A DNA stretch of 41,379 nucleotides, the filler included, from Squalus acanthias (lineage: Eukaryota): assembly GCA_030390025.1 (NCBI GenBank). It is 2 parts of 2 records of this genome, joined end to end, with 100 filler letters (N's around TTAATTAATTAA, not from the genome) between each part and the next. Parts side by side here need not be neighbours in the genome. Positions count along the whole stretch, not along the records: positions 13,907 to 41,379 come from JASTWF010000148.1; 1 more part is not named here. One strand, 5' to 3'. Both the position numbers and the translations under genes were made by a program. Shown one piece after another: positions 8,695-34,334 of this stretch; within the stretch, counting starts at the first letter, position 1, and every line of letters starts with the position of its first letter. The notes beneath the pieces are model-generated. The model did not search any database, was not told the origin of the DNA, and saw only the letters and a list, made by a program, of their open reading frames with translations.

Positions 8695-8960
8695 GAGAGA
8701 CAGCCCCGCCATCAGAGAGAGAAAGAGAGAGAGTGAGAGAGAGAGACAGCCCCGCCATCAGAGAGTGAGAGAGAGAGNNNNNNNNNNNNNNNNNNNNNNN
8801 NNNNNNNNNNNNNNNNNNNNNNNNNNNNNNNNNNNNNNNNNNNNNNNNNNNNNNNNNNNNNNNNNNNNNNNNNNNNNNNNNNNNNNNNNNNNNNNNNNNN
8901 NNNNNNNNNNNNNNNNNNNNNNNNNNNNNNCAGAGAGACTCCTTCACCATCAGACAGAGA
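8598..8960. repeat. (GA)n / cagccccgccatcagagag repeat region containing an N gap (8778-8930)
   Basis: Seen directly. Confidence 0.85.
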
Positions 8961-9559: not shown

Positions 9560-12406
9560 GACAGTAAAATCCCAGGATACTCCGGGCCCTCGCACTGTAA
9601 TATCCCAGGATACACCGGGCCCCAGTACTGTAATATCCCAGGATACACCGGGCCCCATCACACTAATATCCCAGGATACACCGGGCCCCGTCACACAGTA
9701 ATATCCCAGGATACACCGGGCCCTCGCACTGTAATATCCCAGGATACACCGGGCCCTGTCGTACTGTAATATCCCAGGATACACCGGGCCCCGTCACACA
9801 GTAATATCCCAGGATACACCGGGCCCTCGCACTGTAATATCCCAGGATACACCGGGCCCTCGTACTGTAATATCCCAGGATACACCGGGCCCTCGTACTG
9901 TAATATCCCAGGATACACCGGGCCCTCGTACTGTAATATCCCAGGATACACCGGGCCCTCATACTGTAATATCCCAGGATACACCGGGCCCTGTCGTACT
10001 GTAATATCCCAGGATACACCGGGCCCTGTCGTACTGTAATATCCCAGGATACACCGGGCCCTGTCGTACTGTAATATCCCAGGATACACCGGGCCCTGTC
10101 GTACTGTAATATCCCAGGATACACCGGGCCCTGTCGTACTGTAATATCCCAGGATACACCGGGCCCTCATAATGTAATATCCCAGGATACACCGGGCCCC
10201 GTCGTACTGTAATATCCCAGGATACACCGGGCCCCGTCGTACTGTAATATCCCAGGATACACCGGGCCCTGTCGTACTGTAATATCCCAGGATACACCGG
10301 GCCCCGTCGCACTGTAATATCCCAGGATACACCGGGCCCCGTCGCACTGTAATATCCCAGGATACACCGGGCCCTGTCGCACTGTAATATCCCAGGATAC
10401 ACCGGGCCCTGTCGCACTGTAATATCCCAGGATACACCGGGCCCTGTCGTACTGTAATATCCCAGGATACACCGGGCCCGTCGTACTGTAATATCCCAGG
10501 ATACACCGGGCCCCGTCGTACTGTAATATCCCAGGATACACCGGGCCCCGTCGTACTGTAATATCCCAGGATACACCGGGCCCTGTCGTACTGTAATATC
10601 CCAGGATACACCGGGTCCTGTCGTACTGTAATATCCCTGGATACACCGGGCATTGTCGTACTGTAATATCCCAGGATACACCGGGCCCCGTCGTACTGTA
10701 ATATCCCAGGATACACCGGGCCCTGTCGTACTGTAATATCCCAGGATACACCGGGCCCTGTCGTACTGTAATATCCCAGGATACACCGGGCCCTGTCGTA
10801 CTGTAATATCCCAGGATACACCGGGCCCTCGCACTGTAATATCCCAGGATACACCGGGCCCTCGTACTGTAATATCCCAGGATACACCGGGCCCTCGTAC
10901 TGTAATATCCCAGGATACACCGGGCCCTCGCACTGTAATATCCCAGGATACACCGGGCCCTGTCGCACTGTAATATCCCAGGATACACCGGGTCCTGTCG
11001 TACTGTAATATCCCAGGATACACCGGGCCCTCGCACTGTAATATCCCAGGATACACCGGGCCCCGTCGTACTGTAATATCCCAGGATACACCGGGTCATC
11101 GTACTGTAATATCCCAGGATACACCGGGCCCCGTCGTACTGTAATATCCCAGGATACACCGGGCCCTGTCGCACTGTAATATCCCAGGATACACCGGGTC
11201 CTCGTACAGTAATATCCCAGGATACACCGGGCCCTGTCGTACTGTAATATCCCAGGATACACCGGGCCCTCACACTGTAATATCCCAGGATACACCGGGC
11301 CCTGTCGTACTGTAATATCCCAGGATACACCGGGCCCCGTCACACAGTAATATCCCAGGATACACCGGGTCCTGTCGTACTGTAATATCCCAGGATACAC
11401 TGGGCCCTGTCGCACTGTAATATCCCAGGATACACCGGGCCCTGTCGTACTGTAATATCCCAGGTTACACCAGGCCCTCGCACTGTAATATCCCAGGATA
11501 CACCGGGCCCTCGCACTGTAATATCCCAGGATACACCGGGCCCTGTCGCACTGTAATATCCCAGGATACATCGGGCCCTGTCGCACTGTAATATCCCAGG
11601 ATACACCGGGCCCTGTCGTACTGTAATATCCCAGGTTACACCGGGACCTATCGCACTGTAATATCCCAGGATACACCGGGCCCTGTCGCACTGTAATATC
11701 CCAGGATACACCGGGCCCTGTCGTATTTTAATATCCCAGGATACACCGGGCCCTGTCGCACTGTAATATCCCAGGATACACCGGGCCCTGTCGTACTGTA
11801 ATATCCCAGGATACACTGGGTCCCATCACACTAATATCCCAGGATACACCGGGCCCCATCACACTAATATCCCAGGATACACCGGGCCCTGTCGTACTGT
11901 AATATCCCAGGATACACCGGGCCCTGTCGTACTGTAATATCCCAGGATACACCGGGCCCTGTCGTACTGTAATATCCCAGGATACACCGGGCCCTGTCGT
12001 ACTGTAATATCCCAGGATACACCGGGCCCCGTCGTACTGTAATATCCCGGGATACACCGGGCCCTGTCGTACTGTAATATCCCAGGATACACCGGGCCCC
12101 GTCGTACTGTAATATCCCGGGATACACCGGGCCCTGTCGCACTGTAATATCCCAGGATACACCGGGCCCTCGTACTGTAATATCCAAGGATACACCGGGC
12201 CCTGTCGTACTGCAATATCCCAGGATACACCGGGCCCTGTCGTACTGTAATATCCCAGGATACACCGGGCCCTGTCGTACTGCAATATCCCAGGATACAC
12301 CGGGCCCTGTCGTACTGTAATATCCCAGGATACACCGGGCCCTCGCGCTGTAATATCCCAGGATACACCGGGCCCTCGCGCTGTAATATCCCAGGATACA
12401 CCGGGC
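9560..12406. repeat. Large 33/35-bp minisatellite (actgtaatatcccaggatacaccgggccc[tg]tcgt)n, roughly 80 copies
   Basis: Homogeneous head-to-tail units with no unique spacers. It is the source of all the RARCILGYY/GPVYPGILQ ORFs. Confidence 0.97.
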
Positions 12407-12640
12407 TGGGCCCTCTTGTACTGAGGATGGTTGTGTTTCCAGAACTGTTTCTACATCAAACACACCTCCCTCTTCTCATCCAAACTAATACTGTCCACAG
12501 TTCTGTGCCTTTCCCGCCCCAGTTTTCACAGTCCCCGCTCCATTACTGCCTTCCATATAAATGGTGTGAGGATCACCCTCTGAAATAGGACCTGGATCCA
12601 TTGAAAAAGCTAGCAGTTATTTCCCTGCATCAGATACCCG

Positions 12641-13300
12641 TACCCTGCCCAGTCCCAGACTGACAGCTCAGCACTGACCCCCGGACCCTGCCCAGTCCCA
12701 GACTGACAGCTCAGCACTGACCCCCGGACCCTGCCCAGTCCCAGACTGACAGCTCAGCACTGACCCTCCCCCTGGACCCTGCCCTGTCCCAGACTGACAG
12801 CTCAGCACTGACCCTCCCCCGGACCGTGCCCTGTCCCAGACTGACAGCTCAGCACTGACCCGCCCCCCGGACCCTGCCCTGTCCCAGACTGACAGCTCAG
12901 CACTGACCCCCCGCCCCGGACCCTGCCCTGTCCCAGACTGACAGCTCAGCACTGACCCTCCGGACCGTGCCCTGTCCCAGACTGACAGCTCAGCACTGAC
13001 CCCCCCCCCGCCCCCGGACCCTGCCCTGTCCCGGACTGACAGCTCAGCACTGACCCCCCGCCCCGGACCCTGCCCTGTCCCAGACTGACAGCTCAGCACT
13101 GACCCTCCGGACCGTGCCCTGTCCCAGACTGACAGCTCAGCACTGACCCCCCCCCCCGCCCCCGGACCCTGCCCTGTCCCGGACTGACAGCTCAGCACTG
13201 ACCCTCCCCCGGACCGTGCCCTGTCCCAGACTGACAGCTCAGCACTGACCCCCCGGACCCTGCCCTGTCCCAGACTGACAGCTCAGCACTGACCCTCCCC
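12641..13300. repeat. ~44-50-bp minisatellite (accctgccctgtcccagactgacagctcagcactgaccc...)n, about 14 copies
   Basis: Seen directly. Confidence 0.95.
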
Positions 13301-13806: not shown

Positions 13807-13906
13807 NNNNNNNNNNNNNNNNNNNNNNNNNNNNNNNNNNNNNNNNNNNNTTAATTAATTAANNNNNNNNNNNNNNNNNNNNNNNNNNNNNNNNNNNNNN
13901 NNNNNN
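13807..13906. other. Artificial-looking assembly spacer: 44 N + TTAATTAATTAA + 44 N
   Basis: Exactly 100 bp and symmetric. The core encodes stop codons in all six frames. Confidence 0.92.
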
Positions 13907-17949: not shown

Positions 17950-19111
17950 AAATTAAATAAATCTGTTGGACTATAACCTGGTGTTGTGCGACTTCTCATT
18001 TTTGTTAGAGATAGTCATTGCCTGGCACTTCTGCTGCGCGAATGTTACCTGCCACTTATCAGCCCAAGCCTGAACGTGGTCCAGGTCTTGTTGCATGCGG
18101 GCATGGACTGCTTCATTATCTGAGGAGTTGTGAATGGCACTCAACACAGTGCAGTCATCAGCGAACATCCCCATTTCTGACCTTATGTTGGAGGGAAGGT
18201 CATTGATGAAGCAGCTGAAGATGGTTGGGCCTTGGACACTGCCCTGAGGAACTCCTGCAGCGATGTCCTGGGACTCTGATGATTGACCTTCAATCGCCAC
18301 AACCATCTTCCTTTGTGCTAGTTATGACACCAGCCAGTGGAGCGTTTTCCCCCTGATTCCCAATATCTTCAGTTTTACTAGGGCTCCTTGATGCCACACT
18401 CGGTCAAATGCTGCCTTGATGTCAAGGGCAGTCACTCTCACCTCACCTCTGGAATTCAGCTCCTTTGTCCATGTTTGGGCCAAGGCTGTATTGAGGTCGG
18501 GAGCCGAGTGGTCCTGGCGATACCCAAACTGAGCATCAGTGAGCAGGTTATTGGTGAGCAAGTGCCGCTTGATAGCACTGTCGATGACTCCTTCCATCAC
18601 TTTGCTGATGATTGAGAGTTGACTGATGGGGCGGTAATTGGCCAGATTGGATTTGTCCTGCGTTTTGTGGATAGGACATACCTGGGCAGTTTTCCACATT
18701 GTCGGAAAGATCCAGTGTGGTAGCTGTACTGGAACAGCTTGGCTAGAGGCGTGGCTAGTTCTGGAGCACAAGTCTTCTGCACGATAACCGGTATGTTGTC
18801 AGGGCCCATAGTCTTTGCTGTATCCAGTGCGCTCAGCCGTTTCTTGATATCACGTGGAATGAATCGAATTGGCTGAAGACTGGCTTCTGTGATGGTGAGG
18901 ACCTCAGAAGGAGGCCGATATGGATCATCCACTCGACAGTTCAGGCTGAAGATGTTTGCAAACGCTTCAGCCTTGTCTTTTGCACTCACCTGATGGGCTC
19001 CACCATGATTGAGGATGGGGATATTCATGGAGCCTCCTCCCCCCGTTAGTTGTTTAATGGTCCACCACCATTCACGACTGGATGTGGCAGGACTGCCGAG
19101 CTTTGATCTGA

Positions 19112-19284
19112 GGGATAGAAACCGGAACCCCGACTTCACGGATCGATTTAATTCTACGTTTAATGAAACTGCTAAGATTACCGAGCTAACGATCGGCAAA
19201 GCCCTGATCTCCGACACCGCCGTGTATTTCTGTGCGATGAGCCCCACACTGCTGTAGAGAAAAAGCGGCTCCTGTACAAAAACC
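19112..19284 (+). pseudogene. TCR alpha/delta V segment, 3' half plus RSS
   Basis: RNPDFTDRFNSTFNETAKITELTIGKALISDTAVYFCAMSP, then CACACTG (19245-51), a 24-bp spacer and ACAAAAACC (19276-84). Confidence 0.88.
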
Positions 19285-21866: not shown

Positions 21867-22959
21867 CAAGACACAAGATAACAAGATAAGACATTTTCAC
21901 ACTCATTACCATTCTAAAAGCAGGATTTTTTATCAATTGGTATTTGCATCAACTGATGCTTACAGCGTAACTGCGGCATTGTCGTGTTTCAGCATAGCTC
22001 CCACAATATATCATGTTGATGTTAATTATGCTTCTCTCAAGGAGTTAATGGAATATACTGTGAGACTAAACACAAAGATCAATAACTTCAATATTAGCAG
22101 CAAATCCAATTCTCAAAGTAATCATTGCTCTGAGTGGGCCATCTTCGGTGCCCCATATGTCATTGCAAGTCCCATGACACAGTTCAGTGTTCTGAGCAAA
22201 AGGTGGCTAAAAGGTGTTATCGTTTCGGGTCAGCTCCCTGCTGAACTGTGCATCGGTCGGCAAGCAAAGGGTATTTGAAATGTGAGATAGGCAGTTGTAT
22301 TACGCAGAGCAGAACCAATGACCAATTTGTTAATAAACCTGGTGGATATTCGGAACCTGCGGCAGCCCATTCGGGGTGCAGAGGTCACGGTTCCAGGCTC
22401 TGTCAAACACCGCCATCTTTGTGTGACGTACAGTCGGCCATGATTATGTGACGTACTGTCGGCCATGATTCTGTGACATACAGGCCGTCTGTGGCCCTTT
22501 ACTCGCCATTTGTCCTTTGATGCCCTTTCGGTGCCTGCGTGCAATATTGTGTAGCCCTTTACACATTATCCCTGAAAGTTTTCCGGACCCTTTGATCGCG
22601 GCCTGTACACTAGGTTTAGTTGATCAGTGTATGTTGCTGGGTCAGAGACTGTTCTTACACAATGAACAGATGTCACAAGGTAGTGATTGTGTTCTTTAAA
22701 ACAAGCCACAAGCACAGAGTTCCCTCAGTGTCGATTCGCCTTCCGAGTGTCGCTTCATTCTCTGTCACTGCACCTGGAAACGCTGAATATTAGACACCTT
22801 GAAAGCAATCATTACTTAATTGAAACATAACTTTACAAACATAACCACAGAAGGGGACGGTGCATGAAGCATTTATTTAAATTACAGAGAGAGTTTATTA
22901 TTTATGTATATTGTGTGTATCTGCCTGTATATTGAAAATGGCCCTGGACTGTCTCATAT

Positions 22960-23518: not shown

Positions 23519-23561
23519 ATGGGAATCCTCCTTGTTTTCACCCTGTGTGTCTGTTTACCCC
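23519..23561 (+). CDS. Leader exon of the NAR-TCR-like V (MGILLVFTLCVCLP)
   Basis: ATG at 23519, hydrophobic peptide, phase-1 GTGAGT donor, 147-bp intron to the V exon. CGTCA-TATAAA lies just upstream (23484-23494). Confidence 0.88.
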
Positions 23562-23708: not shown

Positions 23709-23998
23709 GCTCTTTCAGTAATTCAGTGGTACAGACCCCGCCAGCGGTGACCAGGGAGGAGTGTCAGTCTCTCACCATCACCTGTGTTTTCTATGGTGGT
23801 TTTTGGGCTAATCCTTTAACGCGTGGGGATTTCTTCAGACAAACCCAGACCGGGACAGAGTGGGAGCGATCTCGAGTGAGGAGCGATTTGTTGTGAGGAC
23901 TAATAAGGCAGAAAAGACATTTTCGTTGGAAATTCGGGATGTGCGAGTTGAAGACAGCGCCACCTATTACTGTAAAGCTGAGTACCAGTACAGGACCA
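23709..23998 (+). pseudogene. NAR-TCR-like (IgNAR-type, CDR2-lacking) V segment with a 1-nt frameshift
   Basis: SVVQTPPAVTREECQSLTITCVF...GDFFRQTQTGTEWER / ISSEERFVVRTNKAEKTFSLEIRDVRVEDSATYYCKAEYQYRT. The -1 shift near 23869 gives TGA at 23894. VNAR-like short FR2 region, extra FR1 Cys and YYCKA end. Confidence 0.85.
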
Positions 23999-24036
23999 CA
24001 CAGTGATGGGCCTCGGCTTCCCGCGATACAAAAACT
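23999..24036 (+). other. 23-type RSS of the NAR-like V
   Basis: CACAGTG, 22-bp spacer, ACAAAAACT. Confidence 0.9.
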
Positions 24037-24359: not shown

Positions 24360-24429
24360 GGTATTTGATGCTGACTTGAAACACTGTGTTTGCTGGAACC
24401 TCACAGTGGATGAGACCTGAGCAAATACC
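24360..24429 (+). other. D segment (TTTGCTGGAACCT, 24389-24401) flanked by 12-type RSS on both sides
   Basis: GGTATTTGA-13bp-CACTGTG, D, CACAGTG-12bp-GCAAATACC. Confidence 0.88.
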
Positions 24430-24730
24430 TGTGTACAATTAAAATATAAATTCCCCGGGCCCGGAACCTGAATTGTAGGTTTGATCTTATTGCCGCTGTA
24501 ATCTAGTTTAATTTCATTGTAATTTCCTGTTTTCAGTTATCTTTCTTTGATATTTTCTCTGTTTATATGAAGCGCCATCTCCGGCCTGTGTTCCTGGGCC
24601 ATTTTACTGAGAGCTCAGAGTCTCACAAAGAACAGTTTGAACCGCCAGGGACTGTGGAACACGGAATATTGTTTATTGATCACTGGAATAATTGGGCAGC
24701 GCGGACGGTCCGGTGATGTGTGTCCGGCAG

Positions 24731-24860
24731 ATTGAGGCGCAGAAAACCATCTGGTTACACATCCCGAAACTGCAACTGAGTGACTCCGCTGTGTATTACT
24801 GTGCACTGAGTCCGCGCACAGCACAGTGATACAGAGCACGGAGAGAGCCGTACAAAAACC
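24731..24860 (+). pseudogene. 3' remnant of a TCR delta-type V (candidate supporting V) with a perfect 23-RSS
   Basis: IEAQKTIWLHIPKLQLSDSAVYYCALSPRT, then CACAGTG (24822-28), 23 bp and ACAAAAACC (24852-60). Confidence 0.87.
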
Positions 24861-25100
24861 TGAACATGGTGGGGATTACAGACACACAGTGATACAGAGC
24901 ACGGAGAGAGTTCACAAACCTGAACATGGTGGGGATTACAGACACACAGTGATACAGAGCACGGAGAGAGTTCACAAACCTGAACATGGTGGGGATTATA
25001 GACACACAGTGATACAGAGCACGGAGAGAGTTCACAAACCTGAACATGGTGGGGATTACAGACACACAGTGACACAGGGCAGGGGGAGAGAGTAAAAATA
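24822..25100 (+). repeat. Tandem array of RSS-derived units (63/60 bp, five heptamers)
   Basis: CACAGTG at 24822, 24885, 24945, 25005 and 25065. Confidence 0.93.
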
Positions 25101-26307
25101 TTCATCACGGATGCATTCTCGACGAATCTTAGAGTTTTCCCGAACAGAAACAAGTCATTAAGCCCAACAGTCTACACTTTCCTTTTCGCTCCTCACACAC
25201 TTTAATATTCCCCTCTATCGAGTCTCCTATCCAATTCCAATGTTTAAATATTTCATGCATTTATTCCACATTTTCCTCTCCTTCTGTGTAAATAATTGTT
25301 TTTCTCAACTTAAACATTTATATTTTGCCGAGTGATAGTTCACCCTAGGAGTTATATTTATTGTCCGCCTGTTTTCACAGGGACCAGCAGAGTTTCATCT
25401 TTCCTTTTCTTTGGTTCAATCCGTCTTTCAACGCTTGGGTTGATGAGCGGTCACCACCTCCTGGGATTTCCCGGATTCGGTGTCGAATCTGCTGAGAGAT
25501 TCTCTCCGCTCAACACGACACCCGCAGCCTGTCCGGACCAACAACCCGGCCAGGTCACGGCTGAAGGAGGATGGGTTTGGATTCAGTGATTTAATGACTC
25601 GTCCATGGAGGGCTGCGGCTTCCACAATTCACGGCAGAGAAAAGGCCCATTATGACACGGGCCGGGCTGCATTCTGGGAGAACTGCCCGCACATGCGCAG
25701 CTCAGAAAAACCTTTTAATGAAATTTTTTCAATTCTCTCGTGAGCCAGAATTTCACTTTAATTGATTAAGATCGAGCAGTTATTTTGATGGAACCTGAAG
25801 TAAATTTTCTTTTCAATCACACAGCGTTTTACGTCACACAAACATGGCCGACTACGTCACACAAACATGGCCGCCGCCGGTTTGCCCTGCAGTTGATGAC
25901 GCCAAAATCCCTCAGCAAGTCACAGCAACGTTATTGGCGGTTTCCCCCATTGATTCAGGGTCAGGATATCACGGGGCGTCTCCAGCCTCTGCTCAGCGCT
26001 AAAGAGCCCCAGTTTGTGGCCCCTGTGACCACTGATTCAGTCCTATGACCAGCAGAGGGGGCGGGGCAGCACGGGGCCTTTTAAAGGCACCCTGCACTCC
26101 ATGAGAACCACCGAGCCCGGAGTCAGTGAGAGCCTGGGAACAGGGCAGAGAGACGAGGGTGACATTAAAGATGATGGAGGCCCCGGATAGAGGGAGGGAT
26201 GAGAGATTGTAGCAGAGACGGAGTATAAGCACCAACTCCATACATTCCCAATCTCCCTTCAGACGGTCCATTAATTCTTCCCTCTCTTAACCCGATGTCA
26301 TACTTAA

Positions 26308-33945: not shown

Positions 33946-34252
33946 ATCTTCAGCACACAATAATACATCGCACTGTCACCCAGCTGTAAACCTGCCAGGG
34001 TTAAACTGAAGAAACGATCCGATACTCGGAGGGTAGAAGAGAATCGGCCTCCCACACGCTCTGGTTTTTGTTCTTCTCCCTCAGAATTCCTTCTGACTAA
34101 AAGCACCGGTGCCTCCCCCGTTCTTTGCCGATACCAGAGCAGGTCATATCGTCGGCTGTCTGTGGAGTATGAACAGGGCAGCACCATGCGTTCTTTCTCC
34201 ACGCATGGTACTGATGCTGCCGGCTGCTTAATTGTATTCGAATCAAACACTC
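33946..34252 (-). CDS. TCR alpha/delta V segment, open V exon (leader not identified)
   Basis: attcgcAG acceptor. VFDSNTIKQPAASVPCVEKERMVLPCSYST...LLWYRQRTGEAPVLL...GRFS...DSAMYYCVLK has Cys23, Trp41 and Cys104. Confidence 0.9.
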
Positions 34253-34334
34253 CTGCGAATAGTAAATAAACAGAAAACAAATAGAGGCTTAGATACCGGA
34301 GACACCAATAGCTGCTCACTCCCTCTCTTCATCC

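Follow-up and report, generated by a model that had tools for sequence, protein, structure and literature searches.

The window, as we call the whole stretch of 41,379 nucleotides of Squalus acanthias DNA (assembly GCA_030390025.1) analysed here, carries in its JASTWF010000148.1 part a NAR-TCR cassette that ends in a tandem array of V(D)J recombination signals (RSSs, Table 1). The best PDB matches of the NAR V are shark VNARs, and its 20 homologues are all shark gene models (63–89% identity), the closest being from Pristiophorus japonicus. It comprises a leader and a cysteine in the a–b loop and lacks the WYRK tryptophan, in keeping with the extra cysteine and the missing tryptophan that define NAR-TCR V segments in the available text of PMC1845163. 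The NAR-TCR cassettes of cartilaginous fish, as described in the accessible parts of PMC1845163, PMC12227049 and PMC6795676, share with our locus the leader, the NAR-like V with both of these features, the D segment and a supporting V-delta ending in a 23-RSS. In contrast to those cassettes, the window copy is frameshifted and is without its J and most of its supporting V. Four other V segments are present in the window, three of them open and one broken.

Table 1. Features of the NAR-TCR cassette, its RSS array and the other V segments (positions in the window)
Feature	Position	Strand	Remarks
NAR-TCR V leader exon (MGILLVFTLCVCLP)	23519..23561	+	GT donor after exon; tblastn match with model P0046 begins at 23519
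NAR-TCR V exon	23709..23998	+	Extra Cys ahead of first canonical Cys; FFRQ for WYRQ; frameshift near 23868
NAR V RSS, 22-bp spacer	23999..24036	+	Nonamer 8/9
NAR-TCR D segment (core 24389-24401)	24360..24429	+	13-spacer 5' RSS, 12-spacer 3' RSS
Junction; J, intron and about three quarters of supporting V missing	24737		Comparison with P0046; contigs of relatives
3' remnant (last quarter) of supporting V-delta	24737..24821	+	Ends YYCALSPRTA, then Q and stop across heptamer
Copy 1, perfect 23-RSS	24822..24860	+	Heptamer 7/7, spacer 23, nonamer 9/9
24-bp linker ('D-like core')	24861..24884	+	Flank after nonamer, present in every unit
Copies 2-4, three 60-bp units	24885..25064	+	Heptamer 7/7, nonamer damaged, 3 bp shorter than copy 1; at high copy in related organisms
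Copy 5, diverged terminal copy, older	25065..25102	+	Heptamer perfect, nonamer position 5/9
Three open TCR-type V exons, 23-spacer RSSs	33946-34277, 37680-38011, 40404-40735	minus	Opposite to NAR-TCR cassette
Broken V remnant, 24-spacer RSS	about 18900-19284	plus	

A NAR-TCR cassette has its own D and J; with the D present and the J absent, the window copy is a damaged member of this class. No J motif was found in the six frames of the cassette, and residues 108–203 of the intact model P0046 had no match in it. What is left of the supporting V, its last 28 codons, is 72% identical to residues 204–232 of P0046. The supporting V-delta of a NAR-TCR cassette is leaderless and has a cysteine in CDR1, and CDR1 falls in the missing part. 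We further compared the window with 7 of 22 sequencing runs, namely X1 and X2 (organism A), X4 and X18 (B), X7 (C), X14 (H) and X16 (J), all of them from individuals other than that of the window (best share of words 0.55). Contigs of X2, X4, X7 and X18 depart from the window at the junction at 24737 toward a nonamer-like motif; X2 and X4 also have contigs that reach this position from V-coding letters, indicating that paralogues in these organisms retain the missing part. As assembled, the cassette is dead, as a previous sequence-only reading of the locus had claimed: the NAR V is frameshifted, and the J is gone together with most of the supporting V.

Several contigs and repeats around the cassette deserve mention in their own right. 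At 23995, contigs of X2, X4 and X7 leave the NAR V end into an identical stretch of 30 letters that translates like a NAR-TCR J (DTVDGS) and looks like a germline-joined NAR V-D-J common to the three organisms. One X2 contig (23985–24400, depth 40) runs from the NAR V end to the 3' edge of the D with 13 other letters in between; this may be a V-D join in the germline, with the 3' RSS of the D retained. Similar short tandem repeats with a TGACGT/ACGTCA core lie on either side of the cassette in opposite orientation (22422–22483 and 25830–25873). Elsewhere, the window contains a 35-bp minisatellite of 83 copies (9564–12406) and an array of 44–49-bp units (12637–13300), and the RSS scan listed no signal in either.

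Behind the supporting V remnant, five perfect CACAGTG heptamers begin at 24822, 24885, 24945, 25005 and 25065. This confirms the earlier description of a signal that is repeated together with about 24 bp of flank at intervals of 63, 60, 60 and 60 bp. Tandem Repeats Finder reported a period of 60, 4.4 copies and 94% matches for 24822–25090; the units are short, near-identical and arranged head-to-tail, that is, they form a minisatellite. In the whole window, CACAGTG occurs 18 times against 6.8 expected, a count reached in none of 100 shuffles. The N runs at 8778, 13807–13906 and 41069 are not close to the array. For scoring, we used the consensus heptamer and nonamer of the sequence-only reading and of the accessible text of PMC6857471. 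Copy 1 has all elements of a canonical 23-RSS (heptamer, spacer of 23 ± 1, nonamer). Copies 2–4 differ from each other by 0–1 base, with a single-base variant of its own in copy 3, and are 3 bp shorter than copy 1, as noted before. Their two proposed spacers, 20 and 22 bp, give 7/9 and 5/9 nonamer matches, respectively (2/9 at 23 and 24). Copy 5 had been counted as a plain copy, which has to be corrected: its spacer is diverged, its nonamer position matches at 4–5/9, and unique flank follows. None of copies 2–5 has an intact nonamer A-tract at the permitted spacer of 22–24 bp.

Copies 1 and 2 align over the full unit with one 3-bp gap and two changes. The array unit derives from the supporting V-delta's own RSS and flank, and the proposal that the V remnant ends in a perfect 23-RSS from which the array arose is borne out. 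Searches for other content were negative. The best match of an inverted or 12-spacer RSS within the unit was 5/9, and an origin of the linker as a duplicated V tip gave an alignment score that was reached by 65% of 5,000 random 24-mers and is therefore background. For the open frame of the array, the search for a coding role gave no homologue of 50–160 residues; among representatives there were 43 matches, and the three inspected were unrelated repeats. Pattern scans of viral, metagenome and genome contigs gave no match. Within 120 bp behind the four other V segments and the NAR V (five V genes), we found no second consensus heptamer.

In related organisms, the damaged 60-bp unit is abundant. 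The summed contig depth over the array was 475,000 in X1, 177,000 in X2, 15,000 in X4 and 4,300 in X7, about 60 to 150 times higher than in the highest other bins (4,500, 1,450, 136 and 71, respectively). Dividing the depth by 31 for contig overlap, we estimate about 40 (X1), 24 (X2), 30 (X4) and 11–23 (X7) units per cassette copy, and 220–620 units per genome for X2; contig depth is not copy number, and these values give the order of magnitude only. On one 107-bp contig of X2, the V end and copy 1 lie without any difference at a depth of 446, whereas single contigs have 17–49; this part is accordingly common to about ten or more supporting Vs. The depth jump begins behind copy 1. Of the 361 X2 contigs, only 12 extend in part beyond the stretch, as one would expect from units in tandem at a small number of loci and not from dispersed ones. 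A 90-bp contig of X18 corresponds without difference to a full unit cycle, with a depth of 586 against 4–8 in the other two contigs of this run; that X18 is RNA is a guess, and we did not count this depth as expression. X14 yielded contigs of 59–60 bp with 0–1 difference to the unit, and its lack of cover on the flanks of 24700–25180 was not counted as absence.

One X18 contig links the flank 300 bp downstream (25359–25388) back to the array (24895) at a common CAGAG, which suggests either a larger tandem duplication of array and flank or a chimera. In X2, 80 unrelated C-rich letters lead into the array at nonamer 1 (24850) on one contig, and at least one array may have a different upstream neighbour.

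In a second approach, we used 59 shark and ray gene models with a supporting V, some of which run past the V end into the RSS. While 27 of them stop at most 9 residues from YYC, most in xRxTAQ, and are uninformative on the array, 31 are longer and one is without the motif. From the 31, we picked 15 tails by eye. Eight of the 15 read-through tails enter a second unit copy: those of Pristiophorus (P0045), Rhincodon (P0048), Stegostoma (P0065) and Hemiscyllium (P0066, P0067, P0068 and P0076) as well as P0077. In these eight, 35–91% of the 7-residue windows fit the unit from our locus, versus at most 10% in 30 shuffles each. No match to the unit was found in the tails of P0050, P0078, P0083 and P0085, for which splicing at another site is probable, and those of P0069, P0070 and P0087 stop either short of the second copy or on reaching it. 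With Pristiophorus among the squalomorphs and Rhincodon among the galeomorphs, the second copy occurs in both superorders. Judged from these translated tails, the RSS duplication appears to be older than the squalomorph–galeomorph split. Local slippage within a dead cassette, the origin suggested before, is not supported by a duplication common to both groups; with second copies elsewhere, the array is not absent from paralogues and thus not local.

The second copies differ in preservation and length. P0077 has five units at an exact spacing of 61 bp, each codon-compatible with a 7/7 heptamer, a spacer of 23 and an 8–9/9 nonamer; for all gene models, such compatibility is an upper bound from protein letters rather than DNA. 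Among its same-frame units, 2 of the 13 changed residues fall in signal codons, which make up 12 of 40 codons; this deficit does not reach significance (P = 0.20). Decay of second copies is frequent in Rhincodon, Stegostoma and Hemiscyllium, and Rhincodon, Stegostoma and P0066 have no second position at a threshold of 13/16. Unit lengths among sharks include 63, 61 and 55 bp and others. The contigs of X16 (82–119 letters) differ from the window by 7 to 17 letters over the V end. Here, three-base insertions and substitutions restore a spacer of 23 and an A-rich nonamer in 63-bp units. One contig has three such units, with a joint going back 63, and another has the RSS with a different flank and no array; an X16 contig also shows an A/T-rich tail resembling that of copy 5 after the second heptamer. 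Copy number therefore differs between loci and species, with 4.4 in the window, three and none in X16 contigs, at least five in P0077 and high depth in X1, X2, X4 and X7. Compared with other sharks, the end of the supporting V is shifted downstream by four bases in the orectolobiform models P0048, P0065–P0072, P0076 and P0087. As a result, their reading frame crosses the signal without meeting the usual stop, and joining at one of the downstream copies could there preserve the frame.

Taken together, the array is a minisatellite made from the 23-RSS of a supporting V-delta and its 24-bp flank, the duplication is common to distant sharks, and we consider it rather probable that the damaged 60-bp version spread as a near-neutral passenger. 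Neutral minisatellite expansion, put forward earlier as a rival, is now the reading we prefer. RSS and flank would have been duplicated before the squalomorph–galeomorph split, and the damaged unit would have spread among cassettes by unequal crossing-over and gene conversion. RAG itself could have made the first duplication, given that the 5' edge of the unit is at the RAG cut site and that germline RAG-like activity has been reported for sharks (accessible text of PMC2193156). In intact paralogues, RAG would use copy 1, and copies 2–5 would be weak cryptic sites at most. With less assurance, we suggest that damaged units could grow long at little cost and that stacks of intact signals would stay short; long intact stacks may be costly. 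The array is likely a passenger repeat that RAG may cut occasionally, and likely not one that generates new gene segments.

The structure of the array fits this reading in several respects. Variable unit length and decayed second copies are expected from turnover without a fixed function. Changes in the nonamer A-tract lower paired-complex formation, according to the accessible part of PMC7337519, and copies 2–5 should therefore be weak. The amplified variant is the unit with the broken A-tract; that the damaged form is the one at high copy speaks against a selection for additional functional signals in this lineage. In the V frame, a stop codon spans heptamer 1. A downstream join would retain copy 1 with this in-frame stop and would be non-productive here, which rules out CDR3 lengthening.

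Other observations stand against our reading. For pure drift, the apparent persistence of the layout since before the squalomorph–galeomorph split is unexpected, as is the absence of such a stack behind the window's five other V genes. The five units of P0077, which protein letters make appear RSS-compatible, and the restored nonamers of X16 would also be at odds with a mere passenger. Furthermore, all five heptamers in the window are perfect, including that of the diverged copy 5. In the available text of PMC6857471, the alternative signal of mouse TRBJ1-7 combines a perfect heptamer with a poor nonamer and is used in vivo, so copies 2–5 need not be silent.

These observations overlap with those expected if the stack were a selected landing platform for RAG, an explanation we regard as unlikely. 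The extra signals would raise the capture of the leaderless supporting V for joining to D-delta, a distal cut would spare the proximal copies for a second attempt, and the window lineage would hold a decayed or heptamer-only version. The layout conserved in both superorders, the units of P0077 and X16, the few changes in P0077 signal codons and the restriction of the stack to the supporting V class within the window all speak for it. However, the P0077 deficit, which comes from protein letters only, lacks statistical significance, several orectolobiform models show decay of their second copies, and the variant at high copy has a damaged nonamer. A distal join would also consume the D-delta signal. 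Extended to a general rule, with equally low probability, the RSS stack would act in cis to set the rate at which RAG captures the supporting V: two to five intact signals would serve as extra landing sites, and the heptamer-only version, with tens of copies per gene, would tune by copy number. If true, V(D)J recombination would here be under a control that is heritable, varies in length and is built from the signal itself.

A further explanation concerns copy number and not origin. The 4.4 copies of the window could be the collapsed assembly of a far longer array, and the missing J and V part could perhaps reflect a mis-join. The estimated mean of 11–40 units per cassette copy in relatives (in runs from other individuals than that of the window), the window's four short N gaps and the finding that none of the contigs listed shows the window's junction at 24737 agree with a collapse. 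But in the same window, a 2.8-kb array is resolved into its 83 units, and copy 3 can be told apart by a single-base variant; we consider a collapse rather improbable.

Still less probable, in our view, is a role of the array as a decoy or spacer that lowers NAR-TCR output, its heptamers absorbing cuts or its length separating the V signal from downstream elements. All heptamers are perfect, hundreds of units per genome are estimated (for X2), and the in-frame stop makes distal joins non-productive; in addition, cryptic satellite signals are cut in mouse cells (accessible text of PMC2193808). Against this stand the nonamer matches, 5/9 at best at a permitted spacer, and the rarity with which the alternative signal near mouse TRBJ1-2 is used, namely in less than 0.1% of joins (PMC6857471, available text).

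Finally, there is hardly any chance that the units are D-delta-like segments or show the birth of a D by slippage. A G-rich 24-mer, presumably reminiscent of human TRDD3, lies directly 5' of every repeated heptamer, but it is the ordinary flank after nonamer 1, GGGG is present in 7% of the window's 24-mers, and the homologous linkers of X16, P0045, P0048 (Rhincodon) and P0077 have different letters, so that the G-run is not conserved. A TCR delta D has an RSS on both sides of a short core, and the linker has none on its 5' side (no permitted spacer gives more than 3/9 nonamer matches), as the sequence-only reading had itself remarked. On these comparisons, the D-like interpretation appears largely refuted.

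In antigen-receptor loci, a gene end normally has a single signal. Ordinary minisatellites under concerted evolution have a short unit and a variable copy number, are near-identical within a lineage and differ in unit length between lineages; the shark array differs from them in that its unit is a V(D)J recombination signal with its 5' edge at the RAG cut site. The cryptic 23-RSSs of the mouse gamma-satellite, described in the available part of PMC2193808, likewise form a tandem unit with a heptamer and are low to moderate RAG substrates. They are look-alike signals in a 234-bp satellite away from gene segments, whereas the shark unit copies a real gene signal, is attached to the gene and has the same orientation. 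The alternative RSSs of mouse TRBJ1-7 and TRBJ1-2 also represent a second signal beyond the gene's own (31–40 bp there), and when they are used, the coding joint retains germline DNA, the first RSS included. In contrast to the shark array, each is single, unrelated to the gene's own RSS and beside a J gene, with no array and no report across species in the accessible text of PMC6857471. Repeated signals behind the supporting V are not mentioned in the available parts of PMC1845163, PMC12227049 and PMC6795676. In the literature searched, which covers the primary shark TCR delta papers incompletely, we found no report of repeated signals behind shark V genes. The array is a real and old arrangement of RSSs that has apparently not been described before, and the window shows it in a damaged state within a dead cassette.

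By itself, the window copy adds little, since it lies in a dead cassette. If the arrays are neutral, they would still confuse assemblies and RSS annotations of shark TCR delta loci. With an RSS repeat behind one V class, in intact short and damaged long forms, sharks offer a natural test of whether spare signals attract RAG, distract it or do nothing, and the array bears on the order of the two NAR-TCR joins.
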